Notes under the pieces: model-generated
Databases searched by the model: none
Seen by the model: the letters and a program-made list of their open reading frames with translations, nothing else
What the model was told of the DNA's origin: nothing
In this document: one piece after another, positions 3,011 through 56,584 of the stretch
How positions within the stretch are numbered: position 1 is the stretch's first letter
Layout: each line of letters opens with the position of its first letter
Program-made: the position numbers and the translations under genes
Assembly (NCBI GenBank): GCA_965649265.1
Contig: CBFGKC010000009.1
Span: 32,001-96,000, forward strand
Direction of reading: 5' to 3'
Length of the DNA stretch: 64,000 nt
Source: a candidate division WOR-3 bacterium
GTDB taxonomy: Bacteria; Hydrothermota; Tepidihabitantia; B3-TA06

Positions 3011-3033
3011 CAGATAAGGGCCCGTAACACATT

Positions 3034-3978
3034 GTGAGCATCATCCTCATAACCGGCGCATCCGGGTTTGTGGGAAAGCTCCTTGGTGAAGAAGAATCGG
3101 AGAGAGGGAATACCGTATTCGGCCTGCATCTTCCAGAGGAGACACCTGAATTGCCTTTCGAATCCCGCGGAATCGATTTACGTGACGGCGAAGGTATCAG
3201 AAATTTTGTTCAAGAGAAAAAACCCGAAAGAATTTATCATCTCGCCGCGCTTTCATCCGTAAGAGCATGCGAGGAACACCCGGTGGATTGTTTCGATTCA
3301 AACGTTACCGGCATCCTGAATCTTCTGGATTCCTTATCCGAATTACCGGTTAAACCGAGAGTACTCTTCACGTCCTCGTGCGAGGTTTACGGCAGTGTTC
3401 CTCCCTCCAGTCAACCTGTGGATGAAAACTACCCCCCCTCCCCCATCAACGTGTACGGGTTAAGCAAAGTTTTTGGAGAAAATATCTTCCATTTTTACTC
3501 AAAAAGGAACTCCTTACCCACCGTGATCAGCAGAGGCTTCAACCATACGGGGCCGGGTCAGGCGCAACACTTTGTATTCCCGCACGTGGCGAGAACCCTT
3601 GCACGCATTCAACTGGGAAAAGAGGAACCCGTGTTGAGTATGGGTAACCTTTCGGTAAGACGCGATTTCCTGGACGCAAGGGATGTGGTAAAAGCATACA
3701 TGACAATTATGGATAAATCCGAAGCCTGGAAGACCTACAATGTTACTTCGGCAAGATGCATATCGATCGGGGAAGGCGTCAACATGCTTGTTGAAATTTC
3801 AGGAATAAAGGTTAGAATAGTAACTGACGAGTCAAGGATGCGCTCTTACGATATACCGGAGCTTTCCGGCTCATCGGCTCTCCTTGAGAGTGAATTAGGC
3901 TGGCATGCCGAAAAAACGCTTGAAGAAACCTTCAAGGATATGCTCCTTTATTGGAGAAAAAAGGAAGGCGCATTATGA
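3034..3978 (+). CDS. GDP-4-keto-6-deoxy-mannose reductase (Rmd)-like SDR, paralog of the preceding gene
   Basis: GASGFVG, YGLSK, FNHTGPGQ, GNLSVRRDFLD; GTG start. Confidence 0.85.
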   Translation: MSIILITGASGFVGKLLGEEESERGNTVFGLHLPEETPELPFESRGIDLRDGEGIRNFVQEKKPERIYHLAALSSVRACEEHPVDCFDSNVTGILNLLDSLSELPVKPRVLFTSSCEVYGSVPPSSQPVDENYPPSPINVYGLSKVFGENIFHFYSKRNSLPTVISRGFNHTGPGQAQHFVFPHVARTLARIQLGKEEPVLSMGNLSVRRDFLDARDVVKAYMTIMDKSEAWKTYNVTSARCISIGEGVNMLVEISGIKVRIVTDESRMRSYDIPELSGSSALLESELGWHAEKTLEETFKDMLLYWRKKEGAL

Positions 3979-4922
3979 AGCTTTATGCTTTCGGAGTAAG
4001 GGGTAGCTTGCCGTCCCCCTCGACAAAGGATTTCAAGACCTCTGATTACGGCGGCAATACAACCTGCTACTATTTAGAGGTCGGTCCGTTCAGAATCATA
4101 TTCGACATGGGGTCAGGCGCAAGAGTCCTCGGCAACCATCTTGTCTCCCATGGAGTAATTGGAAAACCTTTCATTTTTCTCCTAACCCATTACCACTCCG
4201 ATCACACGCAGGGCATAGGATTTTTTGTACCTCTCTACATAAAATCGAACACATTTCACATCCACGGCTTCACGCCCGACGAACGAAGGGGCGCCGATCC
4301 ACTGCGCAACATAGTTCTCCAGTGTCTCGAGGAGCAGCAGTCAAGCCCCTACTTCCCGGTCCCTCACGTATCACTTCCCGCAACCAAGCACTATCACGCA
4401 CATGACAAGATGTTTTCAGAGGTTTTTTATTACGTTCATGAGAATGAATCCTACCGTTTTTTATCTGAAGGAGAATTCAAGGCCGCCTCGTTTGATTCGA
4501 AAGATACTGTCAAGATAACGACGATTCCTTTAAATCATCCCAATGGCTGCATAGGTTATAAAATAGATTACGAAGGAAAATCGACGGCCTTCTGTACGGA
4601 CACGGAACCATTTGCCTATGCGAACCAGAAGATAAACACCCTCGCCAAAGCCGTTGACATACTCATTCTGGACGGCCAATATGCAAAGGAACAACTCGCC
4701 GGGCCAACACAAGACTTCGGACACGGGACGCCCGAACTCTGCATAGAACAGGCCGCTACTACCGAAGCAAAGCTGCTTGTGATAACGCATTTTGATCCGG
4801 GGCAGGACGACGAAAAGCTATCCGCGATGGAAAAAGGCGCGAAGGATTATTTGAAATCCAGAAAATTCAAAAATCCCACAAGTGTCGAGTATGCCAGGGA
4901 AGGTCGTTGCTGGGAGCTCTAG
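3975..4922 (+). CDS. MBL-fold metallo-hydrolase (phosphodiesterase/RNase Z-like)
   Basis: GVRGSLPSP...YGGNTTC, THYHSDH (HxHxDH), NHPNG, TDTE, GHG, THFDP; ATGA overlap with the upstream stop. Confidence 0.9.
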   Translation: MKLYAFGVRGSLPSPSTKDFKTSDYGGNTTCYYLEVGPFRIIFDMGSGARVLGNHLVSHGVIGKPFIFLLTHYHSDHTQGIGFFVPLYIKSNTFHIHGFTPDERRGADPLRNIVLQCLEEQQSSPYFPVPHVSLPATKHYHAHDKMFSEVFYYVHENESYRFLSEGEFKAASFDSKDTVKITTIPLNHPNGCIGYKIDYEGKSTAFCTDTEPFAYANQKINTLAKAVDILILDGQYAKEQLAGPTQDFGHGTPELCIEQAATTEAKLLVITHFDPGQDDEKLSAMEKGAKDYLKSRKFKNPTSVEYAREGRCWEL

Positions 4923-4923
4923 T

Positions 4924-6039
4924 TTGAAAATTCTCGCCGTCAACTGGCAGGACTGGAAGGCTCCGCAGAAAGGTGGGGCGGAGTTCTATCTCAAAGAAAT
5001 CCTTGTACGGCTGGTAGGATACGGGCACAAGGTAACATTGCTTTGCTGTTCCTATCCAGGCGCAAAACACAGGGAAATAGTGGACGGGATCGAAGTGATA
5101 AGAACGGGTTCCCGCAACACGTTCAATTTTCACCTCTACGGCAGCCCCATAAGGAATTTCCTGAGATCTAATGATTTCGACGTAGTGCTCGATGACCTCA
5201 ACAAGATACCCTTCTACACCACTTTATGGGCAGGTTCGACGCCTGTGGTCGGTGTTGTAATGCACGTGTTCCGGCGCGAGATATTCAAGGAAACAAACTT
5301 CCTTGCAGGTAATTACGTCTACCGGTCGGAAAAGCTGATACCCCGGATTTACAGAAAAGGACTCTTCGGATGTCTTGGTGAATCGGGAAGGAAGGAATTA
5401 TCACAGATGGGTATGAACCCTGACCGGATACTCCCCCTGCTGGTCGGCGTCAATTCTACATTCAAACCGGGGATTGAGAAACGGGAAAGGCTCGTCGTTT
5501 CAGTGGGCCGACTGATGCGGTACAAATGTGTCGATCACATAATCTATGCAATTGCTTTATTGAGACAGCGGGGTATTGAGGCAAAATGCGAGATAGCCGG
5601 TGAAGGTCCCGATTACCCGCGACTCGATAAGCTGATCGAGACACTGGGGCTGAGGGAAAACGTAAAACTTCTGGGGTGGGTCTCACTTCCCGACGTAGCA
5701 AGGCTTTATCAACGCGCCAGCCTCGCCGTTCAGCCTTCAGCCAAGGAAGGCTGGGGATTCCTTGCGACCGATGCCGGGGCATGCGGGACGCCTGTAGTGG
5801 CGGCTCGAGTACCTGGTCTCGCGGATTCAGTAATAGACGGAAAGACAGGCTTTCTTTACAGACACGGAGATATTAAGGAGATGGCAGACTTTATGGGAAA
5901 ACTGCTCCAGGACGGAAACCTGAACAAGAAAATGGGAGAAGAAAACCGGCGATGGGCTTCAACACTCACTTGGGAAAAGGTAGCCAGGAGAGTGGAAGAC
6001 TTACTTCTCCAGGCTGTGAGAAAGGAAATTAATAAGTGA
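4924..6039 (+). CDS. Glycosyltransferase family 4
   Basis: NWQD...GGAE N-terminus, VGRL..YK, PSAKEGWG...GACGTPVV; probable TTG start at 4924. Confidence 0.9.
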   Translation: MKILAVNWQDWKAPQKGGAEFYLKEILVRLVGYGHKVTLLCCSYPGAKHREIVDGIEVIRTGSRNTFNFHLYGSPIRNFLRSNDFDVVLDDLNKIPFYTTLWAGSTPVVGVVMHVFRREIFKETNFLAGNYVYRSEKLIPRIYRKGLFGCLGESGRKELSQMGMNPDRILPLLVGVNSTFKPGIEKRERLVVSVGRLMRYKCVDHIIYAIALLRQRGIEAKCEIAGEGPDYPRLDKLIETLGLRENVKLLGWVSLPDVARLYQRASLAVQPSAKEGWGFLATDAGACGTPVVAARVPGLADSVIDGKTGFLYRHGDIKEMADFMGKLLQDGNLNKKMGEENRRWASTLTWEKVARRVEDLLLQAVRKEINK

Positions 6040-7016
6040 AAAAAAACACACGCGACATAATCTTCTTCTGGGCAAGAATCCTGATCGCCGTTACGTTCAT
6101 CGCTATAATAGTTTTGACCGTGGACTTGAAAAAGACCTGGGAAGACTTGAAGCACACCTCCCCCCTCTTCGTAGGTCTGGCAGTACTTGCGTACATGGCT
6201 TTTATTGCATGTCTCGCCCTGCGCTGGCTGATACTTTCAAAGGCGCGCAAACATCCGTATGGCTTTTTTTATCTTTACCGGAGTCTTGTCATTCACTTTC
6301 TATTCAACAACGTGCTCCCGACGACGATTGGCGGGGACGTCTACAGAATAATGGACACGGGCGGCCATGAAGGCAAGGGGGTTTCATTCTCGGTAGTCTG
6401 GACGGACAGGATGATTGGTTTTATAGGAGTATTCACCTTTGCTTTTCTTGCGAGTATTTTTTATTCGATCGTAAGCAAGAAATTCATCCTGCTCCTGATC
6501 TTTGGAGCCGCTTTCCTCTTTTCCGTTACACTTACCGCCGCCTTCCTTTCGAAAAGAATAAACGACTGGCTCTCAACCTGGCTGCCGAAATTCAAGATAT
6601 TCGGGTATCCACTTGGTGAAAAGGTTGCAGGGGCTTTTCGCTCAATAACCGACTACCGTAATCACAAGACCGCGCTTCTTGCCGCTGCCGCCGTCTCGTT
6701 AGGTGTCCAGATCAGCCTTGCTCTTGTCTGGTATCTGTTGTTCTTGTCGCTCGGCGGAAAGACCGATTTCGTAAACATAATGGTCACGATACCTGTGGTG
6801 AACACGCTCGCCATGTTCTCCGTCGGCGGCTGGGGTCTCCGCGAGCAAACCTTTGTCGAGATGCTTTCCACTTTCGCAGTATCCAGGACAACCGCTCTCG
6901 CAACCTCTATACTCTTTGACGCCGTAAACGTCTTTTTTGGAATCGTCGGCGGCATATTCCTTCTTTTCCGGAAGAAATCGATAAAGAAAAGCTCCGAGAA
7001 ACCTGCTAAGTCCTGA
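6036..7016 (+). CDS. Lysylphosphatidylglycerol synthase TM-domain (UPF0104, flippase-like) membrane protein
   Basis: RW motif, FNNVLPTTIGGDVYR, DR, SVGGWGLRE; multiple TM helices. Confidence 0.88.
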   Translation: MKKNTRDIIFFWARILIAVTFIAIIVLTVDLKKTWEDLKHTSPLFVGLAVLAYMAFIACLALRWLILSKARKHPYGFFYLYRSLVIHFLFNNVLPTTIGGDVYRIMDTGGHEGKGVSFSVVWTDRMIGFIGVFTFAFLASIFYSIVSKKFILLLIFGAAFLFSVTLTAAFLSKRINDWLSTWLPKFKIFGYPLGEKVAGAFRSITDYRNHKTALLAAAAVSLGVQISLALVWYLLFLSLGGKTDFVNIMVTIPVVNTLAMFSVGGWGLREQTFVEMLSTFAVSRTTALATSILFDAVNVFFGIVGGIFLLFRKKSIKKSSEKPAKS

Positions 7017-26747: not shown

Positions 26748-26959
26748 GTCAAACCGTTATCCGCAGGGATCGTCGAGTAACCGGTCAATTCCACCTTTCC
26801 AGGACATTTTCGAACCGCCATTTTTACATGGTGAGTGTTATTTTTGCAATAATGGAAATAAAAAAAACTCAGGTGACTTCATAGAAACCATTTTCACTGG
26901 AAATCAGGGAACGATTTTGACCGGCTTTTTTCTCAAAAAAACACCCGAAAAACCTCGAT

Positions 26960-27042
26960 TTGTCCATCTTTTGACCATCTTCTGTCCAACTTATGTCCTA
27001 CTTAGTTATCCACATTTTTGACGCGTTCGATTAATCCTGACC
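26960..27042. repeat. Dispersed non-coding element, copy 1 (four 11-bp units plus DnaA box)
   Basis: TTGTCCATCTT TTGACCATCTT CTGTCCAACTT ATGTCCTACTT AG TTATCCACA TTTTTGACGCG...TTAATCCTGACC; second copy at 56980. Confidence 0.85.
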
Positions 27043-27049: not shown

Positions 27050-27087
27050 ACCCCACAAAATCGCTCCACGATTTTGCGGGGACCCCG
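27050..27087. repeat. REP-like palindrome ending GGGGACCCCG
   Basis: CCCCACAAAATCG-ctcca-CGATTTTGCGGGG-ACCCCG; an element of similar architecture in opposite orientation at about 56881..56921. Confidence 0.55.
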
Positions 27088-31328: not shown

Positions 31329-31377
31329 GAAATGTGAAGGAAGAATGAATCCGGAAAGCGAAGATTGAGGACTGCAG

Positions 31378-35763: not shown

Positions 35764-35815
35764 AAACCAAGGAGTGTCTCCTGACCGGGGAGATTACTCA
35801 GAAAAAGGAGCCAAG

Positions 35816-38074
35816 ATGCCAGCTTTCTTGTTTTTCTTGCTATTCGGAGCAGTCGAATGGAAAGAGACCACCTTTGAGGATTTCAGAGATGGTTCGACTG
35901 ATCCTATGATGTACGTGTCGCACAGGCAACAGTTCGAGATAGAACCAGGATGTATTGAGTTCTACGCTCGCTGGGACGGCGACAACAACGGCTACTATGA
36001 TTTGTTCGTTGCGGGCCGTGGCACGTACGGTCAAAAACTATTCATGGGGCAACCCGGAGCTACGTACAACATTGGCAACACCATCACATATCTGGACTGC
36101 CAGCCGTACTCCGGTGACGCTTCCGGCGGAATAGACATGGCCGACCTGAATATGGACGGCTACCCTGAAGCCATTCACTCAGGCGGATGGTACTCTCCCG
36201 CGGCATATCTTTACTGGGGATCTGCTGCCGGCCCCATGTCGGGCACGCCTACGCAGCTCCCCATGCGTACAAATTATGGAAACTGTCACGAAACCGTCTT
36301 CGTGTACGATGTGGATAAAGATGGTTATCTTGACATCACCATTTGCGGCGGCACCGGCACTCCAAGCCAGAACTATACCCGTATTTTCTGGGGCGACCCG
36401 AGTTTCACTTACACGACATATACCGAACTTCCCAGCGGAATAGGCTGCCAGCACAACCTTGAAATGGCCGACCTGGATCATGACGGCTGGGTAGAGACCG
36501 TTATCCCCAATTACGGTACAAACAACGCTTCCATAGTAAACTGGGGCGAAGGCCGCACTTATACCATTCAAACACTCAGCCTTTCACCACTCGGCGGCAT
36601 CAGCCATCACGGCTTGACGCTTGCGGACTTCAACAGGGATAACTGGCTCGACATAGTATTCACAGGCTATTCAGACATCAACAAGGCCTTGATTTACTGG
36701 GGCGACGAAAACGGCTATACTGTCACCAATACGACCCTCCTGAATACAGGCACCTGCTACGGCGGCAGCTCGTCCATGGATATTGACGACGACGGCGACC
36801 TTGATATTATGTTTCACAGAAACGGCGGCTCGTCTACGTATCCCAAAGTTTATCTTAACCTTGGCGAACCTCCATACTTCAAGGATTCGAGCCACCCCGA
36901 CACTTGCCGTAATCTGGGCAATATTCCCGTAAACGGCACAGGCGGCTTTACCGCCGATTTCAACTATGACGGCTATCTGGATATCTTTCTTAATGCCCAC
37001 CAATCCGGAACACCGTTTTCTGGTCAATCACCCATACTGTGGGGACCTAACTATACCACGGCAACCTTCCTGCCTCACGATGGATACGATCACCATGGCG
37101 TTTTCCGCGAAGCCGGCAATGTGTACGACCGCAGTTTTTCCGCCTGGTACTACTCTTCGGTGTTTGACTGCGGCGAGTTCTACAACAGGCCCAAGGACGG
37201 AAAGCTTTCCTATATAGGTTTTGAACCCCAGGCTTCGAGAATAAGCTTCAGCACGCGCTCCGGACCGGATTCAATCCCCGACGCGTACTGGACCAATTGG
37301 TATGCGGTTGAAAACGGCTATGCCGATCCTCGTTCGCTGACATGGCGCTACGTGCAATACCGAGCTGAGTTTAATTACGTAAGGCCCTCATGGCTGCCCT
37401 GGCTTGAAGAGGTAGACTGGTCATTCAGGGTTCTCGATTTCGGATTCAGGTTCTGGCCGGATAGCATAACCTCGACCACCGCAAACAACTATGCCGATTA
37501 CAAGTGCAAGCTGTGGTACATGGGTGACGCGAGAGATTCTTTCCACCTGAACGTAAGAGAAGAAGTCATGCAACCCGGCTGGCGTGTTGAATTCTGGGAT
37601 ACCCTTTACCATGACACCATCCCACACTTCATTAAGCTTGATGAAAACATGCAATCCGGAGATGATACAGCCTTCATCGCACGCGTCTATGCGCCTGCAG
37701 ACGCCTCTGTCGGCGACTCAAACTGGACGGTTGTGTGGACCAGGACATGGTTCTGTTCGAAGGTCATGAAAGACTCTGTGGTTCTGGTCACGCAAGTGAA
37801 AGCCCCCGGCGTTCTTGAAACCCACGTCATCAGATCCGTGCTTCTTGATGCTTCGACGATCGCAAGCAGGGGTGTCGTGAATTATCTGATTCCCTCAGGT
37901 GAGAATGCGCAGCTCTTCGTATTCGACGCCGCGGGCCGGAGGCTTTACGAGACCCGGGTCCAGGGCTCGGGTTCGATAGAGTGGTCCACCCCCTCCACCC
38001 CTGCCGGTCTCTATTTTGTAAGAATGGTAAGTTCACAAGGCGAGATTGTCAGGAAGGTCGTATTAACCAAATAA
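35816..38074 (+). CDS. Secreted FG-GAP/VCBS repeat protein with T9SS-type C-terminal domain
   Basis: Repeated D-L/F-N/D-x-D-G-Y/W-x-D motifs; C-terminus VFDAAGR...AGLYFVRM...RKVVLTK. Confidence 0.88.
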   Translation: MPAFLFFLLFGAVEWKETTFEDFRDGSTDPMMYVSHRQQFEIEPGCIEFYARWDGDNNGYYDLFVAGRGTYGQKLFMGQPGATYNIGNTITYLDCQPYSGDASGGIDMADLNMDGYPEAIHSGGWYSPAAYLYWGSAAGPMSGTPTQLPMRTNYGNCHETVFVYDVDKDGYLDITICGGTGTPSQNYTRIFWGDPSFTYTTYTELPSGIGCQHNLEMADLDHDGWVETVIPNYGTNNASIVNWGEGRTYTIQTLSLSPLGGISHHGLTLADFNRDNWLDIVFTGYSDINKALIYWGDENGYTVTNTTLLNTGTCYGGSSSMDIDDDGDLDIMFHRNGGSSTYPKVYLNLGEPPYFKDSSHPDTCRNLGNIPVNGTGGFTADFNYDGYLDIFLNAHQSGTPFSGQSPILWGPNYTTATFLPHDGYDHHGVFREAGNVYDRSFSAWYYSSVFDCGEFYNRPKDGKLSYIGFEPQASRISFSTRSGPDSIPDAYWTNWYAVENGYADPRSLTWRYVQYRAEFNYVRPSWLPWLEEVDWSFRVLDFGFRFWPDSITSTTANNYADYKCKLWYMGDARDSFHLNVREEVMQPGWRVEFWDTLYHDTIPHFIKLDENMQSGDDTAFIARVYAPADASVGDSNWTVVWTRTWFCSKVMKDSVVLVTQVKAPGVLETHVIRSVLLDASTIASRGVVNYLIPSGENAQLFVFDAAGRRLYETRVQGSGSIEWSTPSTPAGLYFVRMVSSQGEIVRKVVLTK

Positions 38075-38108
38075 CAAACCTTTTTGATCTCGTAAAATTT
38101 TTAAATCC

Positions 38109-38145
38109 CTTAATGTTGCTCCGGTTCGACCGGAGCAACATTAAG
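38109..38145. other. Perfect intercistronic hairpin without a U tail (RNA stability or processing element?)
   Basis: CTTAATGTTGCTCCGG-ttcga-CCGGAGCAACATTAAG. Confidence 0.7.
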
Positions 38146-38162
38146 AAATTACAGGAGAATGT

Positions 38163-40433
38163 ATGAGTTTCTTGATGATATTGTTCCTTCCGGGATTAGT
38201 GGAATGGACGGAAACAACCGCCCAGGATTTTTTAACAAATCTCGGACACGATCCGATGATGTACGTATCTCAGAGGGCAAACCTTGAGGAATCACCCGGT
38301 TGTGTTGAGTTCTTTGCGCGATTCGACGTTGATAACGACGGCTACTACGACGTACTTGCTTCTGACGAAGGCAGCGGAACAAAGTACTTAAGATTGTATA
38401 AAAGCTCACCCTCTGGATTTCTAGCCTCGGATTCCATCTACTACCCCATTCTTACAGGGGGAGGGGGTTGCGACCTTGCCGACCTATCCCTGGATGGTTA
38501 TGCTGAGTTGATCCATTCCGGTTACTCGGCCAGACGAATAACCATATACTGGAATGACGGAATTAACGGGCCGAATCCAAACGATACCACTCTTCTCACA
38601 CCACCGAACAATGCAGATCCTGAAACTGTCTACATCTATGATCTTGACAACGACACCTATCTCGACATTCTTGCGGCCGATGCCAGCACACACCAGCTTA
38701 TAGTTTTCTGGGGATTCCCGACCGGCAATCCTTTGCGACCGGTAGGTTACTCCAATTCGTCCGTCTCCTCATTCAATCAGGGCGGAGGAGAACATAATAT
38801 CGAGGTCGGAGATATCAACAGAGACGGATGGGGCGACATAATATCAGGCGCGGACAATACATCCCAAAACAACCACGTTTACTTCTGGGGACCTTACAGG
38901 ACTCCCGAAAACGTCATGGATATCGCGGGCGCCGGGGGTTCAAATCACGGAACCTCCATGGCGGATTTAAACAACGATGGCTGGCTTGATATCGTATTCA
39001 CACTTTCTTACGCCGGAGCCGGACAGTATGGAAGGGTTTATTTCTACGACCCGGAGCTGGAAACATACCCATCGACGGCCAGCATACTCCTGAAGCCCGG
39101 TTCTTGCTACGGCGGATCCGCCGTATGGGACTGGGGCGATAAAAAAGGCAATCCCAATCCTGACGGTCTTCTAGATATCATATTCTTCCGCGCCGACCCG
39201 AACAACAGGCGTCCGCCCGTCGTCTACTACAACCAGGGCGAAGAACCGTACTTCTGGGATTCCGACACCACGACAAAGAATCTCGGAAACTCCAACATAG
39301 TATGTTCCGGAGGCTTCGTGGCCGACTTCAACTACGACGGCTGGTGGGATATATATCTCAATGCCTACGTCAACCACAAGGCTTCATACGTTCTCTACGG
39401 TCCCGATTACCGCATCGAGGATGCCGATTCCGTCCCCGTTAATGCCGACCATCACGGAGTCTTCCGCGAGCCCGGAAACATATATAACCGCAAGTACACG
39501 GCGTGGTATGATTCGGATGTGTTCGACTGCGGCAAGGATTACGACGGAGCAAAGAATTGCGACGTTTCATACATTGCCAAAACACCAGGCTCATCCTCCA
39601 TCGAATTCTACTTGCGCTCCGGCCCCGATTCAATGCCTTCATCTGCATGGACAAGCTGGGACAAGGTGGAAAACGGCTACGGCGATCCTTATGCGCTGCG
39701 CTGGCGCTACGTTCAATACAGGGCCGAGTTCTGCTATCCCAAACCGGCCGATCTTCCCTGGCTTGAATACGTAAGCTTCAAGTTCAGCCCGCTGGATTTC
39801 AAGTTAAAGCTCTGGCCTGACAGCGTCAAGACCATATCCGGCGGCAACTACACCGATTACTTCCTGAAGCTTTTCTACAAGGGAGACGAGCATGATTCGT
39901 TCCACCTTAACGTTCGCGAAGACTTCATGAAGCCAGGATGGTGGGTTGAGTACTGGGACACCGCTTACACGGACACAATCCCGAGATACATCAAAATGAA
40001 GCCCATAATCCCCAGTGGTGACGACACCGCTTTCTATGCAAGGATCCACGCGCCGTCGGATGCACAAGTAGGCGACACCAACATAACCATCATACATGTC
40101 AAAACGAGGTATTGCTCCCGCGACATGAGGGATTCGGTAATCCTCGTGAGCAGCGTAATTTCTCCCGGTGTGGTGGAAACCCGACCGCTTCACACGCCGA
40201 TCCTTGAGATGCCAACAGCCGGGAAAACAGGCGTCATAAATTACATGCTGGCCGCCGGCGAAAAGGCAAAGCTTTCCGTTTATGATGCCTCCGGCCGTCT
40301 GGTATTCCAAAATGAGATTCGAGGCACCGGAAAACTTGACTGGGCAAATGCCTCTATTCCTTCAGGACTGTACTTCATAAGACTGGAACACGCTCAGGGT
40401 TCAATGGTAAGAAAAACAGTGCTGACAAGGTAA
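38163..40433 (+). CDS. Secreted FG-GAP/VCBS repeat protein with T9SS-type C-terminal domain (paralog)
   Basis: Colinear with the preceding gene (DPMMYVS, CYGGS, DHHGVFRE, RYVQYRAEF); ends VYDASGR...SGLYFIRL...RKTVLTR. Confidence 0.88.
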   Translation: MSFLMILFLPGLVEWTETTAQDFLTNLGHDPMMYVSQRANLEESPGCVEFFARFDVDNDGYYDVLASDEGSGTKYLRLYKSSPSGFLASDSIYYPILTGGGGCDLADLSLDGYAELIHSGYSARRITIYWNDGINGPNPNDTTLLTPPNNADPETVYIYDLDNDTYLDILAADASTHQLIVFWGFPTGNPLRPVGYSNSSVSSFNQGGGEHNIEVGDINRDGWGDIISGADNTSQNNHVYFWGPYRTPENVMDIAGAGGSNHGTSMADLNNDGWLDIVFTLSYAGAGQYGRVYFYDPELETYPSTASILLKPGSCYGGSAVWDWGDKKGNPNPDGLLDIIFFRADPNNRRPPVVYYNQGEEPYFWDSDTTTKNLGNSNIVCSGGFVADFNYDGWWDIYLNAYVNHKASYVLYGPDYRIEDADSVPVNADHHGVFREPGNIYNRKYTAWYDSDVFDCGKDYDGAKNCDVSYIAKTPGSSSIEFYLRSGPDSMPSSAWTSWDKVENGYGDPYALRWRYVQYRAEFCYPKPADLPWLEYVSFKFSPLDFKLKLWPDSVKTISGGNYTDYFLKLFYKGDEHDSFHLNVREDFMKPGWWVEYWDTAYTDTIPRYIKMKPIIPSGDDTAFYARIHAPSDAQVGDTNITIIHVKTRYCSRDMRDSVILVSSVISPGVVETRPLHTPILEMPTAGKTGVINYMLAAGEKAKLSVYDASGRLVFQNEIRGTGKLDWANASIPSGLYFIRLEHAQGSMVRKTVLTR

Positions 40434-40484: not shown

Positions 40485-40808
40485 TTTGTACTGCTTGTAG
40501 ATGTACCAGTTCCTTCGACCGGCGCCGCGGTCGAGATATATCTCGAAGACTTCCCCTGAATCGGTATTTACGAGGTACACGTTGCGATGGCGACGCATCA
40601 GCCAGGTGCGGCGTTTGGGCGAGGCCTCGGAGAAGCCGTGATCCTGCCAGCTCCTGACGATCTCGGTAATTATATAGTTTTGATGGCGCCACTTGAAGCT
40701 CAAGGGCGTCGGATCTTCGTCGGAGCAGACCACCTCTATCCTCTCCCCTATGAACCTTCCTCGTGAATCGGAATCACCTTTCGGCGTCTTCGACTCGCTC
40801 ATTCTCAA
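40482..40808 (-). CDS. DUF6504-like small cytoplasmic protein
   Basis: PLSFKWR..YIITEIVRSWQDHGF...RRHRNVYLV.T..GEVFEIYLDRG...W. Confidence 0.75.
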   Translation of the reverse strand: MRMSESKTPKGDSDSRGRFIGERIEVVCSDEDPTPLSFKWRHQNYIITEIVRSWQDHGFSEASPKRRTWLMRRHRNVYLVNTDSGEVFEIYLDRGAGRRNWYIYKQYK

Positions 40809-40848
40809 ATACCATTCAGAAAAGAGGCGGTCTTGACCAGTGTGGCAC

Positions 40849-41277
40849 AGCCCTCCTCAGAAACCCTGCTTGGAATCGATCTCCCGATTTCTTCCAAGTC
40901 GAAAAAGGAGCCAGGGAGGGTGTGTTACGGGTGTTATTTCCTTTTGATAAAGCTGCATATAAAAATCCCCGAAGGGGACGGGTGTTGCGGGAGCCCTCCT
41001 CAGAAGCCTTGCTTGGAATCGATCTCCCAATTTCTTCCGAGTCAGCAAAAGGAGCCAGGGAGGGTGTGTTACGGGTGTTGCGGGAGCCCCCCTCAGAAGC
41101 CTTGCTTGGAATCGATCTCCCAATTTCTTCCGAGTCAGCAAAGGAGCCAGGGAGGGTGTGTTACGGGTGTTGCTTCCTTTGGGTCTTTGCTGCAGATGGA
41201 AGTGACCTATGGAATGAAAGCTCACTCCAAGGGTCAGACCCTGCCCCGAAGGGGTACGGGTGTTGCGGGTTACGGGT
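40849..41277. repeat. Composite repeat locus: three roughly 88-bp units plus cassette copies
   Basis: AGCCCYCCTCAGAA..TGCTTGGAATCGATCTCCC..TTTCTTCC..AAGGAGCCAGGGAGGGTGTGTTACGGGTGTT at about 40849, 40992 and 41085. Confidence 0.95.
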
Positions 41278-41755
41278 ATTCTGCCCAGAGTGTGCGCCAT
41301 GTCTTGAGATCTGAGGTGTCGGGCACCTTGAGAAGAGCCATGCCTTCGAGATGACCGTCGTCCATTCTGATGAAAAGAATATCTTCTCCGAGAAAGATCA
41401 CGTCATCGGACGAGCGGACGCTCCATTTGCCGCCCACCGCGGTGCCTAGGGAGATGACTTCGTTGAGAGTGTCCGGATTGAGTATTCTGCGCAGGATAGC
41501 GGTATAAGCCGGGGAAATGTCTTTTGCCTTGCTCATCTGTGCCTTCAGGGAATCTATCCTGGTCTCGAGACTCTTTATCTCCCGGGTTTTGGATTGAATC
41601 TCGTCCTCGAGATTCTTGCCTGCCACCGGGCCAAGGAAGTAGAATCCTGCTACGCCTATGCCCAGGCCGACGATAAAGGTTATTGCCCCTAATAGTACCT
41701 TTGAGAAACCGCCTGATTTGGATGTTCGAGATTCAGTTGGTTGTTCGTTCATCAT
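41270..41755 (-). CDS. Hypothetical membrane-anchored coiled-coil protein
   Basis: TM helix, coiled coil, globular C-terminus (GTAVGGKW..DDGH); GGAGG RBS. The stop codon lies inside a CCCGTAA repeat. Confidence 0.75.
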   Translation of the reverse strand: MMNEQPTESRTSKSGGFSKVLLGAITFIVGLGIGVAGFYFLGPVAGKNLEDEIQSKTREIKSLETRIDSLKAQMSKAKDISPAYTAILRRILNPDTLNEVISLGTAVGGKWSVRSSDDVIFLGEDILFIRMDDGHLEGMALLKVPDTSDLKTWRTLWAEYP

Positions 41756-44688: not shown

Positions 44689-46188
44689 CTATTTGTTATG
44701 CTCCTTCTCGAAAGGGCATCCGCCGCAGCCTGTTGGCGATGGGTTTTCCTTGCAACCTGAGGAGGGAGGTGAGGAAGGCTTTTCGTGTTCACAGCCTTCA
44801 GGGATGTGCTTACCCTGCACCCACTTTATAAGAGCGGGAATAAAGCAAGGCGTGAACTCCTTCGGAAGGGTCGCGTATTCGCTTATTGCCCCGGTTATCG
44901 CGGACTGGAAAAGATGATTGGCCTGGCAGCAAACCTTGATTGTGTAGTTGGTCTTGCCTGCGTCTCTGAAGGTTTCGACGAGCGCTACTGAATCCATCTC
45001 GGCTGGAACCTGCAAATCGTACCTGCCGTAAAGCGCAAGCACACGCGCGCGAATCTTTGCAAGATCGGGCCTCGGGTCGTAGTCGAGGAAGAACCGGAAC
45101 CACGGCGATTCGAGCACCTTGATTTGCGCGTCCATCTGCTTGTCCACGAATGCGTTCACGTTGCCGAACTGCTTGCGCTCCTTGGGGGGCATCGCCTTGA
45201 TTTCGGCAATCAGTTCCTTGCGGATTTCGGCCTCAAGCTTCTGGTCAATGCCTTCGGGAGTTCGCAGCGCCGCGTAGATGCGCTTCTGGAGTTCTGCGGC
45301 TTTCTTGATTTTTTCTTCAGGAACAGCCTGTGATTTCATAATGAGCTCCTGCTGCGCCAGAAGTATCTCTTCGCCCGGAACCGCCGGCCCCGCCATGAGA
45401 ATGACGAACGATATCGTGGGATTTTCTTTGGCGACCATCGCGGCAATCAGTCCGCCCTCGCTGTGACCGAGGATACCGACCTTCTTGGTGTCCACTTCAG
45501 GTCGCGCCATGAGGAAGGCGAGCTGGGCTCTTGCGTCTTCGGCGAAATCGCTGGTGGTGACGCTGTCCAGAGAACCTGTGGATTTCGCGAAACCGCGGTC
45601 ATCGCATCTTAATACGACTATCCCGTGGCGCGTGAGGGAGTCGGCGATTATCCCGAATATCTTGAAACCGAAGACCTCTTCGTTGCGATCCTGCGCTCCG
45701 CTTCCGGTTATAAGGACCACTGCGGGGTGTTTGAGAGTGTCAGGCGGGAGGGTGAGGGTCCCGGCAAGCGTAACCTGGTCGTTAACCTTGATAGAGACCT
45801 CTTCCTCTCTGTAGGGAGGGGGGGTGGGTGCTTCTTCCTTGACGCGCACGAGGTAGAAGGTGCCCCTGGCTGGTCCCTGCTTGAAGGGACCCTTGATGCT
45901 GTCGCCCGCCAGTTCGGCATCGCCGAAAACGGCGGTAGTCGCACCGGCGTTTAGCTCGAAGTACGCTTTGTTATCTTTGAAGGAGATATTCTGCAAAGCG
46001 AGTCCCTTTGCGTTCTGCTGCGGGATGTCGATTGTACCGGTGAATTTGTCACCGGATTTTTGAATATTGACGAGCATTCCGAGTTCCACGGATTGAATCT
46101 TGATGGCCCCTTGCCAGGCTCCCTCGATTGACGACTGGGCAAACACTGTTGCCGCAAGGCATGTAAGAACTGCAATCATTTTACGCAT
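44689..46188 (-). CDS. Exported alpha/beta hydrolase (S9/esterase-like)
   Basis: Signal peptide, LAGTLTLP, TGSGAQDRNE, DDRG, GHSEGG nucleophile, DLQV, NHLFQ; Cys-rich tail. Confidence 0.9.
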   Translation of the reverse strand: MRKMIAVLTCLAATVFAQSSIEGAWQGAIKIQSVELGMLVNIQKSGDKFTGTIDIPQQNAKGLALQNISFKDNKAYFELNAGATTAVFGDAELAGDSIKGPFKQGPARGTFYLVRVKEEAPTPPPYREEEVSIKVNDQVTLAGTLTLPPDTLKHPAVVLITGSGAQDRNEEVFGFKIFGIIADSLTRHGIVVLRCDDRGFAKSTGSLDSVTTSDFAEDARAQLAFLMARPEVDTKKVGILGHSEGGLIAAMVAKENPTISFVILMAGPAVPGEEILLAQQELIMKSQAVPEEKIKKAAELQKRIYAALRTPEGIDQKLEAEIRKELIAEIKAMPPKERKQFGNVNAFVDKQMDAQIKVLESPWFRFFLDYDPRPDLAKIRARVLALYGRYDLQVPAEMDSVALVETFRDAGKTNYTIKVCCQANHLFQSAITGAISEYATLPKEFTPCFIPALIKWVQGKHIPEGCEHEKPSSPPSSGCKENPSPTGCGGCPFEKEHNK

Positions 46189-46278
46189 TGAATATCCTCC
46201 GTTTGTTGGATTCATTTACATCTTTTGCTTGAGTATACTCATTATTACGAGACACTCAACATTTTATATTATCAACAG

Positions 46279-48681: not shown

Positions 48682-48786
48682 GAATCAGGATGATCGAGAC
48701 CCCTCACTGCAAGTTACGTTATTACTAGACTAATTTGTCGATTCAGTACGACACAAAACTTAGAAGGCTGCGTCCAGGGAAGGTTT

Positions 48787-48848
48787 CTGAGGACGGCTGA
48801 GGAGTGCTGAGGGGGCTGAGGGGGGCAGGAGGAGGGCTGAGGGAGGGC
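48787..48848. repeat. CTGAGGRGGG tandem array (about 10-bp period)
   Basis: CTGAGGACGG CTGAGGAGTG CTGAGGGGG CTGAGGGGGG CAGGAGGAGGG CTGAGGGAGGG. Confidence 0.85.
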
Positions 48849-48923
48849 GGCGACATCGAATGTCGCTTGTCGAACTTCGTTCGACCGGAAGGTTCATGGG
48901 TATTTTTTAAGAGAAAATGTGAA

Positions 48924-48966
48924 GGGTGTTACTGAGGGGGGCTGAGGGGGGCTGAGGAGGGCTGAG
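48924..48966. repeat. GGGTGTTAC fused to a CTGAGGRGGG tandem array
   Basis: GGGTGTTA CTGAGGGGGG CTGAGGGGGG CTGAGGAGGG CTGAG, ending 2 nt before a TTGACC -35 box. Confidence 0.85.
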
Positions 48967-49001
48967 TATTGACCTCCAGTTTAATTAGAGTAAGATAGGT
49001 G

Positions 49002-49838
49002 ATGCGTAAGTACTTATCGATACTTTCAATAACAGGGCTCGTGCTGGGATTTGCGGGGTGCACGAGTTTCGACCCTGATGCCGCAGAAAAAGAGATCCGA
49101 AGCCTGGTCCAGGCCGATACCGGCCGTATGCTCCTTTCCGGGGTGTCCCTTGAAATAGATATTCCTTCAGCGGATTCGGTGAGTGCCGACAGCCAGTGGC
49201 TTGTAACCGGTATAAGTATCTCGACTGACTTCGAATCAGAGACCCTTGGCGTATATTTCAACGAGGAGATAAAGAATGATACATCCGTGACAGTCGGCGA
49301 TTCGGCGCTCGTACTCGTGGAACGCTTTTACAAAGGGACTCTTATTTCTACCCTTACGCCCAAATCAGGAGGGTCATCGACCGAGGTTACAAAAAATTTC
49401 GGGACGAGGAGACAGCAGTGGAGCGAGTATGTAAACGCGGAAGGCTGGAGCGCGCTCGCTTATTCTTTTGCCGACGAACGATCGGATACCAATACGACTC
49501 AGATATTCTCCCTGGGCATCAAGTCGACCAGCCTTGACACAACAATTGACTCACCAGGCTATCTGGCGTTTGAAAACGAGCTGCCCTCGATAGCCAAGGG
49601 TTCGACGCTCACATTGTCTTTGCGGACCGCGAGCGACACCAACGAGATAGTCTGCCTTGCCAAGGGCGGAGAAGTGGCGAGGTTTTTGCCTCAGGAGGGC
49701 CAGGCCAAGCGCTGGCAGGCCGAGATCACTCTGGATTCCTCACCGCTCATCGTATGCATAATCAAGAAAGATGCCCTCGCGGAATCCTCGTATCCCGCCG
49801 ACATTGACATCTGGTTGATTCCCGTGCGCATGAATTAG
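49002..49838 (+). CDS. Hypothetical lipoprotein
   Basis: MRKYLSILSITGLVLGFAGC lipobox; promoter TTGACC-16-TAAGAT 5 nt upstream. Confidence 0.8.
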   Translation: MRKYLSILSITGLVLGFAGCTSFDPDAAEKEIRSLVQADTGRMLLSGVSLEIDIPSADSVSADSQWLVTGISISTDFESETLGVYFNEEIKNDTSVTVGDSALVLVERFYKGTLISTLTPKSGGSSTEVTKNFGTRRQQWSEYVNAEGWSALAYSFADERSDTNTTQIFSLGIKSTSLDTTIDSPGYLAFENELPSIAKGSTLTLSLRTASDTNEIVCLAKGGEVARFLPQEGQAKRWQAEITLDSSPLIVCIIKKDALAESSYPADIDIWLIPVRMN

Positions 49839-53339: not shown

Positions 53340-54280
53340 GAAGACTTGGAGGAGGGCCTGGAGGAGGAGGGCGGAGAGGAGGGGTGCGAGGTACGCTTCA
53401 GGGGAACGTCGAACGAGGAGGACGAGGGTGTTGCGGGGACGGGGATGAGGCGGTTGTCGATGAGCCTTGCCCTGCCAAATTTGACCGCGAGCGCGAAAAG
53501 AACAGTACCTTTGATTTTCTTAACCTCCTCGAGGGTTTCCGGGTCGACGGCGGCAACGTAGTCGATGCGGTCGGGGTTTGCGGCCGCTATCATATCGAAC
53601 ATCCGCTTGAGGATCACTGAGGCGTCCCTCTGGCCGTCCGTGACCATCTTGTCAGCCTCGGCAAGAGCGCGGTTGAGGACGAGCGCTCGCTTACGCTCGT
53701 CAGGCGTGAGATAAGTATTGCGCGAGCTCATCGCAAGGCCGTCTGCCTCGCGCACTATATGGCAGGCAACGATTCGGATGTCGAAATCGAGATCGCGAAC
53801 CATGCGACCGATGACCGCGAGCTGCTGCCAGTCCTTTTGCCCGAAGTAGGCAGCGTGAGGCTTTACGATGTTGAAGAGCTTGGCCACGACAAGGCTTACC
53901 CCGTCAAAATGGCCAGGCCTGGTCTTTCCACACAGGTGGCCGGTCAGGCGATGGACGTAAACGTGGGTGAGAGAGGGTTCGGGGTACATCTCCCCAACCT
54001 CCGGATAGAAAATTACATCCACCTTCTCCTTTTCCAGAAGAAAGCGGTCACTGTCAAAATCCCTTGGGTAGGCAGTCAGGTCCTCGCCCGGCCCGAACTG
54101 GGCAGGATTGACGAATACGCTCACGACAACGAGGTCGGCCTCACCCCTTGCACGGCGCACGAGGGACATGTGCCCTTCATGAAGGTATCCCATTGTAGGT
54201 ACAAAACCTATGCTCTTGCCTTCCGCCCTTGCTTCATCGGCCCAGGTCTGCATCTCGCGGACGGTTCTGATAATCTCCAT
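53336..54280 (-). CDS. panC: Pantoate--beta-alanine ligase with Ser/Pro-rich C-terminal extension
   Basis: FVPTMGYLHEGH, SVFVNPAQF, RPGHFDGV, FGQKDWQQ, READGLAMSSRN, RLIDN. Confidence 0.96.
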   Translation of the reverse strand: MEIIRTVREMQTWADEARAEGKSIGFVPTMGYLHEGHMSLVRRARGEADLVVVSVFVNPAQFGPGEDLTAYPRDFDSDRFLLEKEKVDVIFYPEVGEMYPEPSLTHVYVHRLTGHLCGKTRPGHFDGVSLVVAKLFNIVKPHAAYFGQKDWQQLAVIGRMVRDLDFDIRIVACHIVREADGLAMSSRNTYLTPDERKRALVLNRALAEADKMVTDGQRDASVILKRMFDMIAAANPDRIDYVAAVDPETLEEVKKIKGTVLFALAVKFGRARLIDNRLIPVPATPSSSSFDVPLKRTSHPSSPPSSSRPSSKSS

Positions 54281-54499
54281 GATTTCTATACTAGGCGAAG
54301 GCGGCAACTTGTCAACAAGTTCCGGCAGCGACTGTGAGATTGTCGGGATTTACTACAGCTTGCCGGTTTCGAGTACTTCCAAAGTCGTGGTTTTGCGAGA
54401 GTTCTAATAAACCAGGCGTGGAACGAAAATTGCTTGGATAATAACGAACAGGTATGATTAAGTATGGGTGGGCCGAAACACATATACTAAAGGAAGGAA

Positions 54500-54874
54500 A
54501 TGAATACATCAGTACGCTTTGAAAGACGGCTCGCTCAAGATGAAGTGGTGTATCGGCAGGGAGAAAGAAGCACTGAGATGTACTACGTGCGCAAGGGCAG
54601 GGTGAAGATAGTGGTAAAAGGCTGGGGAAACGAAACCCTTTTGACGGTTGTCGATGAAGGAGGCTTCTTCGGCGAGACGGCCCTGGTAGAGAACACGCCG
54701 CGAATAAACTCCGCGATCGCCCTGGAGGATACAGAACTTCTCGTGATCGACAGGGAATCGTTTGAAGCCAACCTTGCCTCGAACCCGGTGCTAAAGCATA
54801 TCCTTGAGACACTGATCCGGCAGCTCAAGGATATAACCGCCCTCGTGCACGAAAAGGAAGTCGTGAAGATTTAG
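54500..54874 (+). CDS. Stand-alone cyclic nucleotide-binding domain protein
   Basis: YRQGE, MYYVRKGRVKI, FFGETAL..PRINSAIA; no HTH domain. Confidence 0.88.
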   Translation: MNTSVRFERRLAQDEVVYRQGERSTEMYYVRKGRVKIVVKGWGNETLLTVVDEGGFFGETALVENTPRINSAIALEDTELLVIDRESFEANLASNPVLKHILETLIRQLKDITALVHEKEVVKI

Positions 54875-54930
54875 CGTGAATGGTCTGGGGAGGGCGAACG
54901 CCGGGGGAGCGTGGATAGAATGGAATTCTG

Positions 54931-54973
54931 CAGAGGGGGGCTGAGGAGGGCGGAGGGGGGCGGAGGAGGGCTG
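54931..54973. repeat. C(T/G/A)GAGGRGGG tandem array
   Basis: CAGAGGGGGG CTGAGGAGGG CGGAGGGGGG CGGAGGAGGG CTG. Confidence 0.85.
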
Positions 54974-55171
54974 TATGGAAAACTTGCAGCATGTATTAAA
55001 GATGTACACTCATACCCGCATATCGAGAGGGAGGGGGGCCGCGACGATGGGAGAGCGGGTTTCACACGCCTGAGCACAAAGGTGAGTGCAAGTCCGCCCT
55101 CCCCCTTTTTTGCCCCTTGACATATCCCTGCCCCGGCGTAATGTAGGCTGATTACATAACTGGAGGTACAC

Positions 55172-56584
55172 TTGAAGCGAGTGATTGTTACAAGCCTGAT
55201 AAGCTTTATGTCTCTCCTCGCTGGCTGGTGGGGCACATACGGCGGCGACCTTGAAGAGTATGGAAACTATATCCTCAAAACAACAGATGGAAATTACCTG
55301 CTTGCCGGCAGCACAGAATCGTTCGGCCCGGTGTACGGTAAATCAGCGGCATGGCTCATGAAGATTGATTCTTCAGGAGATACCCTCTGGACCCGCTCTT
55401 TTCCCATGGACTCCGAGACGGTTACGACCGCCAAAATGATTCTTGAAGAAGAGGACAGCGGTTACGTTTTTATCGGTGACGGAGATCGGGGGAGCATACT
55501 CGTGAGAACGAATAAAGATGGTGATACACTCTGGACGCGAAGGTATGGCTCATCGTTGGATCTTACCTGGCCTAATTATATTGAAAAGACCGGTGACGGC
55601 GGTTACGCGATAACTGGAAGGGCTTATTTATCCGACTACAACTATTATTTGTGGATACTGAAGACCGATTCCTGTGGTGACAGCCTCTGGGCTAAACTAT
55701 ATGCAGGTGACGACTTCTCCGGTAATTGTGGAAAATACATATTCGAAACGGATGACGGCGGCTACGTAGTACTTGGAGAAATAGGTGAGATTACCGATAA
55801 GAGTGAAACCAACATTTGGTTCCTGAGAACGGATTCTCTCGGAGATACACTCTGGACAAGAATCATTGGAAGAGAAAACGGTTCCTATGATGTTGTTTAC
55901 AGCGTGTGCCCCGACGAAGACGGCGGCTACACCATTTTTGCCAGCCTCGATTCGGTTACATGTTTTCTAAAGATGGATTTTATGGGGAACGTCGTCTTCG
56001 AAAAAAAATATGAACCATTATTCGCAATCAGGGCAACATCATTTAAAACACTGCCCGGAGATAAAGGTTATGTCCTCTGCGGCTACCTGAGGGAATCTTT
56101 CATAATGAAAGTTGACACTGCTGGCGAAGAAATAGGGATTAACTATTTCCCTGGCCCAAGCAACGACTATCTAAATTCACTCGAGTTGACAGAAAACGCA
56201 GGATTCATCGCCGTAGGTTCGACCTCATCATGGGGAGCAGGAATGAGCGATATCTGGATTGTGTGTATAGACTCCCTCGGCGACACACTCGGCGTCTACG
56301 AGCCCTCCTCACCCGTAACACACCCACCCTCCCCCGTAACCCCAGTAACACCCCGTCTCGAAATATCCTCACCAATTAATTCGGAGATCACCCTGCGATA
56401 TTCCCTGAACCTGAGCGAGCGTGGGACCCTCAAGCTCTTCGACGCCTCGGGCAGGATGGTTTCAAGCATCTGCGTTCACGGGCAAGGCGAGGTGAAGGTC
56501 GCAGCACTCACCCCGGGCGTCTACTTCGCCCGGCTGGAGGCGGAAGGATTGCGAGTTACGCAGAAAGTGGTCATTCTGAGATAG
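55172..56584 (+). CDS. Secreted beta-propeller repeat protein with T9SS-type C-terminal domain
   Basis: Repeated KTDSxGDTLWTR units; FDASGR..PGVYFARL..TQKVVILR; GGAGG before the TTG start. Confidence 0.88.
   Translation: MKRVIVTSLISFMSLLAGWWGTYGGDLEEYGNYILKTTDGNYLLAGSTESFGPVYGKSAAWLMKIDSSGDTLWTRSFPMDSETVTTAKMILEEEDSGYVFIGDGDRGSILVRTNKDGDTLWTRRYGSSLDLTWPNYIEKTGDGGYAITGRAYLSDYNYYLWILKTDSCGDSLWAKLYAGDDFSGNCGKYIFETDDGGYVVLGEIGEITDKSETNIWFLRTDSLGDTLWTRIIGRENGSYDVVYSVCPDEDGGYTIFASLDSVTCFLKMDFMGNVVFEKKYEPLFAIRATSFKTLPGDKGYVLCGYLRESFIMKVDTAGEEIGINYFPGPSNDYLNSLELTENAGFIAVGSTSSWGAGMSDIWIVCIDSLGDTLGVYEPSSPVTHPPSPVTPVTPRLEISSPINSEITLRYSLNLSERGTLKLFDASGRMVSSICVHGQGEVKVAALTPGVYFARLEAEGLRVTQKVVILR
56301..56354. 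repeat. In-frame AGCCCTCCTC + CCCGTAACAC repeat insert (PSSPVTHPPSPVTPVTP)
   Basis: AGCCCTCCTC ACCCGTAACACACCCACCCTCCCCCGTAACCCCAGTAACACCCC. Confidence 0.8.

Follow-up and report, generated by a model that had tools for sequence, protein, structure and literature searches.

Rickettsia palindromic elements (RPEs) are small, non-autonomous repeats made of single palindromic units of about 150 bp that often lie in frame in unrelated genes and have no known mobiliser (PMC10969869). The pneumococcal BOX elements are modular and are described as boxA-(boxB)n-boxC, with modules of 45-59 nt, terminal inverted repeats (TIRs) and target duplications (PMC3049150). Neisseria intergenic mosaic elements (NIMEs) are non-coding mosaic arrays in which 20-bp dRS3 units with 6-bp terminal inverted repeats flank RS elements; their unit number differs between strains, and a recombinase targeting the short unit is suspected (PMC1797815). 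Here, a family of G-rich repeats is described from a 64-kb stretch of DNA (the window, to which all coordinates refer unless another locus is named), which is ordinary chromosome of a WOR-3/Stahlbacteria-like bacterium. With a probability of about 0.6, the family consists of modular interspersed repeats that are non-autonomous, are specific to the lineage of WOR-3 (Stahliibacteriota)-type bacteria and spread at the DNA level. Two further kinds of repeat serve for comparison. The short tandemly repeated repetitive (STRR) sequences of heterocystous cyanobacteria are lineage-specific dispersed tandem arrays of heptamer units, described as intergenic, and we know of no cassettes or in-frame copies among them. 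Repetitive extragenic palindromes (REPs), bacterial interspersed mosaic elements (BIMEs) and palindrome-associated elements derived from IS200/IS605 are small and hairpin-bearing, lack TIRs and target-site duplications (TSDs) and keep a fixed orientation to a short target word; the insertion point is 3' of TTAC for IS608 and 3' of TTGAT for ISDra2.

Chance levels for the motifs of the family were obtained from dinucleotide-preserving shuffles. The module A word CCCGYAACAC was found 24 times on the two strands, against 0.21 expected and a maximum of 3 in 100 shuffles (positions 3021, 5111, 28384, 28651-28727 with six copies, 31457-31634 with seven, 40922-41269 with six, 53428 and 56312), and GGTGTTACGGG, allowing at most one mismatch, also reached 24 in the window, against 0.59. 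Module B in the form AGCCCYCCTCAG occurs six times where 0.02 copies are expected, and CTGAGGRGGG, with at most one mismatch, 25 times where 8.76 are expected (shuffle maximum 16). Exact copies of the 24-nt core of a third module, cassette C, lie at 31539 and 41231, with none expected. These counts confirm the observation of a first-pass annotation of this DNA that building blocks recur across the window.

Module A consists of GGGTGTTAC arrays with periods of 9, 12 and 15, and module B of CTGAGGRGGG arrays with a period of 10; module U is a 93-nt unit, and module C is a cassette that spans about 90 nt and contains three hairpins. The short units A and B are arranged head to tail, as shown by Tandem Repeats Finder (TRF). 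Inverted matches connect the modules, one of 85% between 40848-40874 and 48773-48799 and another of 86% between 41057-41084 and 56303-56330, and the two cassette C copies (31497-31577 and 41189-41269) share 85% identity over 81 aligned nt. A single family of recombining modules with strong G/C strand asymmetry, present both in intergenic DNA and in genes, is supported, as first proposed. Of the A-B junctions that had been named as the joints of this family, the one at 48924 contains just a partial A, GGGTGTTAC joined to CTGAGG. The coordinates in the first-pass annotation were essentially right, with three corrections; its list of copies omitted the solo A units at 5111 and 28384, and the copies that it gave at 40849, 40992 and 41085 are those of the then unnamed 93-nt unit U. 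The copies in the window and the features adjoining them are given below, those at 3021, 28648-28728, 40849-41277, 48773-48966 and 54931-54971 being intergenic. Gene starts are the choices of open reading frame (ORF) or gene callers, and the peptides are predicted readings.

3021-3031 (-): solo A unit, TGTGTTACGGG on the minus strand, in the 23-nt gap between the epimerase/dehydratase genes 2057-3010 and 3034-3978.
5111-5120 (-): solo A variant GTGTTGCGGG, within the GT4 glycosyltransferase gene 4882-6039.
28384-28394 (-): solo A unit within the putative lipoprotein ORF 28104-28634 (-), reading GVTG (...NSWGVTGINS...).
28622-28650 (-): promoter-like TTGACT-17-TATACT (10/12), directly 3' of the following A array on the G strand and upstream of the putative lipoprotein ORF, whose signal-peptide-like start was judged by eye.
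28648-28728 (-): A array of six units, period 12, in a divergent intergenic gap, its last unit adjoining the -35-like hexamer (TRF: 28648-28713, period 12, 5.5 copies).
31457-31479 (+): left flank of cassette C, with 2.6 copies of the A unit in its G variant GTGTTGCGG, period 9.
31476-31566 (+): cassette C copy 1, about 90 nt, with hairpins ATTTCC/GGAAAT, TGACCTGTGGGATGAG/CTCATCCCAGGGGTCA and CCCC-GAA-GGGG.
31566-31640 (+): A array, periods 9 and 15, in the frame of ORF 31378-32151 (Gx transporter, Hpre_diP_synt_I), reading GVTGGGGVTGVTGTGVTGTGVTGTG (TRF: 31590-31640, period 15, 3.4 copies, 100% matches).
40849-40941 (+): unit U copy 1, 93 nt, in which an inverted B (AGCCCTCCTCAG) is followed by a core (about 60 nt) and by A units.
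40935-40991 (+): internally deleted cassette C, retaining TTATTTCCTTT at its left end and CCCCGAAGGGG-ACGGGTGTTGCGGG at its right end.
40992-41177 (+): second and third copies of unit U, tandemly arranged (TRF: 40978-41173, period 93, 98% matches).
41168-41277 (+): second copy of cassette C, with A units GGGTGTTGCGGGTTACGGG after it.
44757-44779 (+): B-like stretch in the 3' part of the hydrolase gene 44689-46215 (-), whose C-rich strand reads PSSPPSS.
48773-48848 (+): degenerate B array, period 10, 6.1 copies, opening with the left end of U in inverted form (TRF: 48787-48848, period 10).
48850-48885: between the two B arrays, a pair of neighbouring hairpins whose stems, GCGACAT/ATGTCGC and GTCGAAC/GTTCGAC, are each 7 bp long.
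48924-48966 (+): partial A that runs into a B array of 3.5 copies (TRF: 48932-48966, period 10).
48969-48996 (+): promoter-like TTGACC-16-TAAGAT (9/12), after the B array and upstream of the putative lipoprotein ORF 48999-49838.
53346-53444 (+): B-like repeats (period 12 or 15) and an A variant, overlapping the start of the next gene (TRF: 53348-53383, period 15 or 12).
54931-54971 (+): B array, period 10 or 20, between the cyclic nucleotide monophosphate (cNMP)-binding gene 54500-54874 and gene 55172-56584 (TRF: 54933-54971).
56301-56352 (-): B and A units in gene 55172-56584, the C-rich strand reading the linker EPSSPVTHPPSPVTPVTP.

The modular build invites comparison with BOX and NIME arrays. 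Like BOX elements, which vary in size between strains, sometimes lie beside promoters and can extend or create ORFs, the present family is modular, contains a variable tandem module and is open on both strands. The boxA/boxC TIRs and the 45-nt boxB of those elements have no counterpart here, where the tandem modules measure 9-15 nt, no TIR was found and no TSD could be read. As in NIMEs, a short repeated unit separates varied longer cassettes in dynamic arrays; in place of the ATTCCC...GGGAAT ends of dRS3, however, the flanking words are GGGTGTTAY or GGGTGTTRCGGG, which have no inverted ends, and genes are entered.

The lineage distribution was then considered. The nearest named homologues of two window proteins belong to 'candidate division WOR-3' (79% and 70% identity) and to TA06 and WOR-3. 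A scan of genome contigs for a pattern of three A units returned at least 114 loci; among the matches listed, seven loci come from two Candidatus Stahlbacteria metagenome-assembled genomes (MAGs), both of which NCBI taxonomy places under Candidatus Stahliibacteriota, the name given for the WOR-3 lineage in a published abstract. Between the window and the loci of these two MAGs only the repeats match, and the window belongs to neither genome. Most of the scan loci that were opened were rejected as unrelated tandem repeats of other phyla, for example L042 and L043 (a Gly/Ala-rich coding repeat). After masking of the ascertained arrays, GTGTTRCGG was found 11 times in 78 kb of Stahlbacteria loci, against 1.07 expected, whereas 40 loci of other phyla (655 kb) contained 13 copies, against 13.8 expected. 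Because this ten-fold enrichment persists after masking and is absent from the 40 loci of other phyla, the A unit is a genome-wide feature of this lineage only, and the lineage specificity suggested in the first-pass annotation holds. With STRR sequences the family thus shares dispersed arrays of a very short unit at many loci of one lineage; the cassettes and in-frame copies set it apart. Literature searches on Stahlbacteria, covering titles and abstracts, and on repetitive elements of WOR-3 gave no account of such repeats, and to that extent the family is apparently undescribed in print. One further scan locus, L094 (MAG contig CAZUXE010000001.1, 24001-24561, 561 nt), carries a period-12 CCCGTAACAC array with spacers as in window 28648-28728, which forms a PVT-rich C-terminal protein tail.

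Copies of module A lie in frame in unrelated genes and are read in five frames, as GVT, CYG, VLR, PVT and RNT; the sixth frame contains TAA, and the VLR readings lie upstream of genes. As in RPEs, insertions are found in frame in unrelated ORFs, here in at least 10 gene families by predicted reading. The examples are as follows.

GVT: N-terminus of the Gx transporter (window).
PVT: linker of a protein with a type IX secretion system (T9SS) tail (window).
PVTPATPVTPAT: AccB/BCCP linker (Stahlbacteria MAGs).
GVSGVTDVTGVTGVTG: GGDEF-TPR protein (Stahlbacteria MAGs).
VCYGVCYGGCYG, directly ahead of IDWG: phage-type terminase (Stahlbacteria MAGs).
Whole cassette: linker of an endolysin, locus L027 (Stahlbacteria MAGs).
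PVTPTPVTPVPVTPPPVTP: Zn-ribbon membrane protein (Stahlbacteria MAGs).
RNT, RNTHNTRNTRTHNTPRNTP: N-terminus of a CDP-alcohol phosphatidyltransferase (Stahlbacteria MAGs).
In-frame copy: tail of an SSF symporter (Stahlbacteria MAGs).

Within the window, the stretch 31457-31640 shares the frame of the Gx-transporter ORF, precedes its Pfam domain and reads ...GVAGVAGVISSDLKLLMEMTCGMRTHPRGQTLPRRGMGVTGGGGVTGVTGTGVTGTGVTGTGG. The minus strand of 53346-53444 encodes the 34-residue C-terminal tail of PanC, PVPATPSSSS...PSSPPSSSRPSSKSS, and the linker EPSSPVTHPPSPVTPVTP immediately precedes the Por_Secre_tail domain (residues 401-468) of gene 55172-56584. From the A array to the conserved first helix of the Gx transporter (within 31378-31680) the ORF has no ATG, GTG or TTG, which leaves translation of the repeat-derived N-terminus or the use of an unusual start. 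L027 8500-15000 (SOJW01000014.1) is prophage-like, with a terminase large subunit, an endolysin (PHROGs) and several ORFs without a family, and its genes carry host-type A arrays and a cassette in frame.

The repeat family is a DNA-level entity. Convergence at the protein level is disfavoured because the codons are identical in all contexts and because non-coding copies exist. A selection filter on the copies is also visible. Period-10 B arrays contain TGA in all three frames of the G strand and were found only in non-coding DNA, and coding B copies are read from the C-rich strand and have a period of 12 or 15. Two frames stay fully open throughout the 429 nt of the U-C cluster, where shuffles average 0.09 and reach two in 3 of 500. 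The three long ORFs across 40763-41354 were rejected as a real gene, as they gave no credible Pfam match. The first-pass label 'BIME/RPE-like' is half right: the RPE part fits, copies being in frame in genes, while the BIME part fails, since the units are non-palindromic, run head to tail and in many cases lie in coding sequence. With RPEs, the family has in common that a peptide is added in frame without destroying the protein and that no mobiliser was seen. It differs from their description in its arrays of 9-15-nt units, five reading frames, separate cassettes and other phylum.

The main support for recent spread to new sites, which is indirect and rests on predicted proteins, comes from the Gx transporter, PanC and the endolysin cassette. 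A set of 22 Gx-transporter proteins was compared (at least 57% identity, that of the window included). The stretch ahead of the conserved RQRNLALL ranges from 9 (MRSPTELSP) to 94 residues; A-derived peptides (GVTG, CVTG or RNT) are present in 9 of the 22 and one or two cassette copies (...KPQVIVKMPRRGTG...) in four, and 13 contain neither an A peptide, a cassette nor a U-like peptide. In several filled forms the native start MRSPT is retained before the insert, and several proteins also show (PSS)n followed by a peptide that resembles U by eye. The PanC tail of the window is found in none of 27 other PanC proteins, 18 of which end in ...LIDN(R/M)L(V/I)EP. The filled and empty sites that the first-pass annotation proposed to look for are thus both found among relatives, at the protein level. 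A search of representative proteins with the L027 endolysin-linker cassette peptide gave four matches. Two of these, P0158 and P0159, are short, unrelated predicted proteins that match at 100% and 94% identity over 31 residues, with differing numbers of (GVT)n flanking the cassette; the other two, P0160 (30%) and P0161 (48%), are long proteins. A search of a phage collection with the L027 terminase for an empty site gave no match, and tblastx between the loci of the two MAGs revealed no orthologous overlap.

The cluster 40849-41277 has the order U, deleted C, U, U, C, A. Cassette C begins after GGGTGTTAY with TTCCT... and ends with ...CCCCG(A/T)AGGGGTAY before GGGTGTTRCGGG, and its orientation relative to the G strand and the A unit is the same in all four DNA copies. 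Copy 1 folds with a z score of -3.36 (none of 200 shuffles as good) and copy 2 with -2.42 (4 of 200). Paired stem changes between the copies were noted by eye, ATTTCC/GGAAAT against GCTTCC/GGAAGT and G-C to A-T in the long stem. The L027 cassette is a variant that keeps the ends of C and has a different middle. An inverted-repeat scan of the arrays showed no inverted symmetry in units A (GGGTGTTAC) and B (CTGAGGRGGG), stems being present only in the cassettes, and the ends of unit U have only a 6-7-nt CCCTCC/GGGAGG complementarity. The 20-40-nt imperfect palindrome of a REP is accordingly not seen in A or B. The family also departs from BIMEs, which are strictly extragenic and alternate in orientation, by its head-to-tail units and in-frame genic copies, and from miniature inverted-repeat transposable elements by the lack of TIRs. 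A possible likeness to elements of the IS200/IS605 type lies in the hairpins with paired changes, the fixed orientation and the junction words GTTAY/GTTAC and TTGAC. Unlike elements derived from that group, A and B are not hairpins, the arrays are direct, copies lie in genes, and no TnpA/HUH gene was seen in the scanned ORFs.

A and B form head-to-tail arrays, and the cassettes U and C sit between A units, always in one orientation relative to the G-rich strand. On the proposed reading, new copies would be placed by a trans-acting enzyme not encoded in the window, the preferred guess being a hairpin-recognising single-strand transposase (HUH/IS200-IS605-like) or a site-specific recombinase, whose target may be the A unit or a TT(G/A)AC-like word. 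The arrays would afterwards lengthen or shorten by replication slippage or unequal recombination. Selection would then retain copies in spacers, or stop-free in-frame copies at protein ends and in interdomain linkers, where they would add low-complexity peptide. Copies adjoining a -35 box may modulate transcription, which would be a side effect and not the reason for the family. A bolder version holds that a lineage-specific enzyme writes or copies GGGTGTTAC-type units beside TT(G/A)AC or GTTAC words and shuttles hairpin cassettes between arrays; a hairpin-guided HUH nuclease/ligase or a templated polymerase (reverse transcriptase, primase-polymerase) would be candidates. This version is speculative and probably wrong, although, if true, it would equip WOR-3 bacteria with an inbuilt means of producing hypervariable tracts upstream of promoters, as well as disordered linkers and termini, in prophage genes no less than in host genes.

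Several observations weigh against the spread of mobile modules. No mobiliser was seen in the 64 kb of the window and 78 kb of related loci. The empty sites are known as proteins only, so that DNA junctions are not visible, and target duplications could not be read because the cassettes are flanked on both sides by A units, which may represent either a duplication or no more than the array. The variation at the Gx site could be due to nothing beyond local slippage and recombination, and the peptide of the window's cassette C matched no protein other than its own. The enrichment of module B in the window (9 against 0.37 expected) is not seen in the two MAGs (2 against 0.5). Unit U was rejected as a structured RNA (z -0.82 and +1.16), the U-C composites fold only weakly better than shuffles (z -1.29 and -2.03), and the inverted-repeat scan found no TIRs in cassette C. 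Finally, the TTGAC statistic given below was framed after inspection of the data.

Part of the evidence would also suit functional cis-elements, that is, arrays directly upstream of promoters that would adjust transcription by binding a factor or by forming G-quadruplexes, with copy number as a contingency switch and the genic copies as by-products. Among 18 arrays with at least three units, from the window and six loci, TTGAC follows within 0-7 nt on the G strand in four (background 0.0099; binomial P = 2.6e-5). Two of these, in the window, are the promoter-like sites 28650-28622 and 48969-48996, and the L003 array adjoins TTGACA upstream of a cNMP-binding regulator gene. The N-termini of PanC relatives (MCYGVLRVVDN...) suggest, from the protein alone, further A units beside TTGACA, and the G-rich strand is the non-template strand in all DNA cases. 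Six canonical G-quadruplex motifs were found in the window, against 1.36 expected; four of the six lie in family loci, including one at 31593-31640. TTGAC, however, adjoins only 4 of the 18 arrays, and one of these words lies inside the terminase gene, within the codons for IDW, and is for that reason older than its array. The promoter scan made no call at the L003 site, and many copies lie within genes in either orientation. G-quadruplex formation was rejected as a universal property of the family, 28648-28728 and 48932-48966 being among the arrays that are not canonical motifs. The junctions hint that a unit-like word is preferred as target or nucleation point, from which occasional effects on promoters would follow. 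Regulation as the basis of the family is compatible with the spread of modular repeats and is considered unlikely.

If nothing moves at all, a lineage that favours PVT- or GVT-rich linkers could have acquired similar microsatellites independently by local slippage. The A periods of 9, 12 and 15 are all multiples of three, and many copies are located at linkers and protein termini, as this would predict. The same bases are nevertheless used each time (CCC GTA ACA), whether the copy is non-coding or read in any of five frames; unrelated loci, and different genomes, share cassettes of 60-90 nt whose ends are conserved, and the unit is ten-fold enriched in relatives after array masking, leaving independent slippage with very little probability. 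The stable hairpins of cassette C and the mixing of several modules within a cluster could, on the other hand, suggest a REP/BIME family mobilised by a REP-associated tyrosine transposase (RAYT). Against the non-palindromic A and B units, the direct arrays, the copies in coding sequence and the absence of a Y1/HUH domain from every scanned ORF, this appears highly improbable. Since the source is evidently a metagenome-type contig, the longest contig listed for its proteins having 124,918 nt, an assembly or binning artefact was also considered. No array reaches 100 nt and the largest cluster measures about 430 nt, identical units are present in two independent MAGs, in the MAG locus L094 and in independently predicted proteins from several sources, and long ORFs stay open through the in-frame copies, all of which leaves this explanation with almost no weight. 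The spread of lineage-specific modular repeats at the DNA level is therefore retained as the best explanation.

The window encodes sugar epimerases, a glycosyltransferase, CorA, Era, AddAB, PanC, RecO, Rnf subunits and FG-GAP proteins, together with proteins that have Por_Secre_tail or FlgD_ig tails. A tRNA-Arg is the sole Rfam match at the gathering score, and no Rfam match was obtained at E values up to 1 in 40750-41350 or 31330-31700. No transposase, HUH, reverse transcriptase or integrase domain was detected by Pfam in 59 window ORFs or in 67 ORFs of five loci of relatives. This agrees with the first-pass statement that the mobiliser is not in the window; the suggested search for a RAYT, HUH or reverse transcriptase gene in these two ORF sets found none.

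The cNMP-binding protein 54500-54874 (+) has 124 residues and only that domain, and its L003 homologue (6027-6665) has 212; ORF 54312-54812 (-) was rejected as a gene, being antisense to it. The FG-GAP genes at 35774-40433 (766 and 756 residues) are tandem paralogues with a DNA identity of 72-76% in places, separated by a terminator-hairpin-like 22-nt inverted repeat (38104-38150, 91%). A second, unrelated dispersed repeat is present at 26959-27042 and 56973-57051 (79 nt, 86% identity) and consists of tandem 11-mers TTTTGTCCATC/TTTTGACCATC followed by the exact DnaA-box consensus TTATCCACA. Its first copy lies in a 540-nt gap upstream of the tRNA-Arg, at the minimum of the cumulative GC skew, and possible identities of the repeat are an origin-type DnaA-box cluster and a shared promoter module. 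Window 27050-27089 is matched by L019 4006-4045.

For the annotation of WOR-3 MAGs, the family means that repeats lengthen or shift predicted ORFs, as seen in the Gx N-termini (9-94 residues), in the tail of PanC and, at 40.8-41.3 kb, in three spurious ORFs that overlap one another. Repeat-derived peptide has therefore entered the protein catalogues of the phylum. The lengths of the arrays might be used as strain markers, and a cultured WOR-3 isolate reportedly exists. The TTGAC/GTTAC junctions, together with cassettes that lie within arrays of their own flanking unit, lead to a concrete hypothesis of target choice. Beside the RPEs of Rickettsia, the family is a second, independent case of repeats that routinely survive in genes, its 9-nt unit being stop-free in five of six frames, and it provides a visible source of new linkers and tails.

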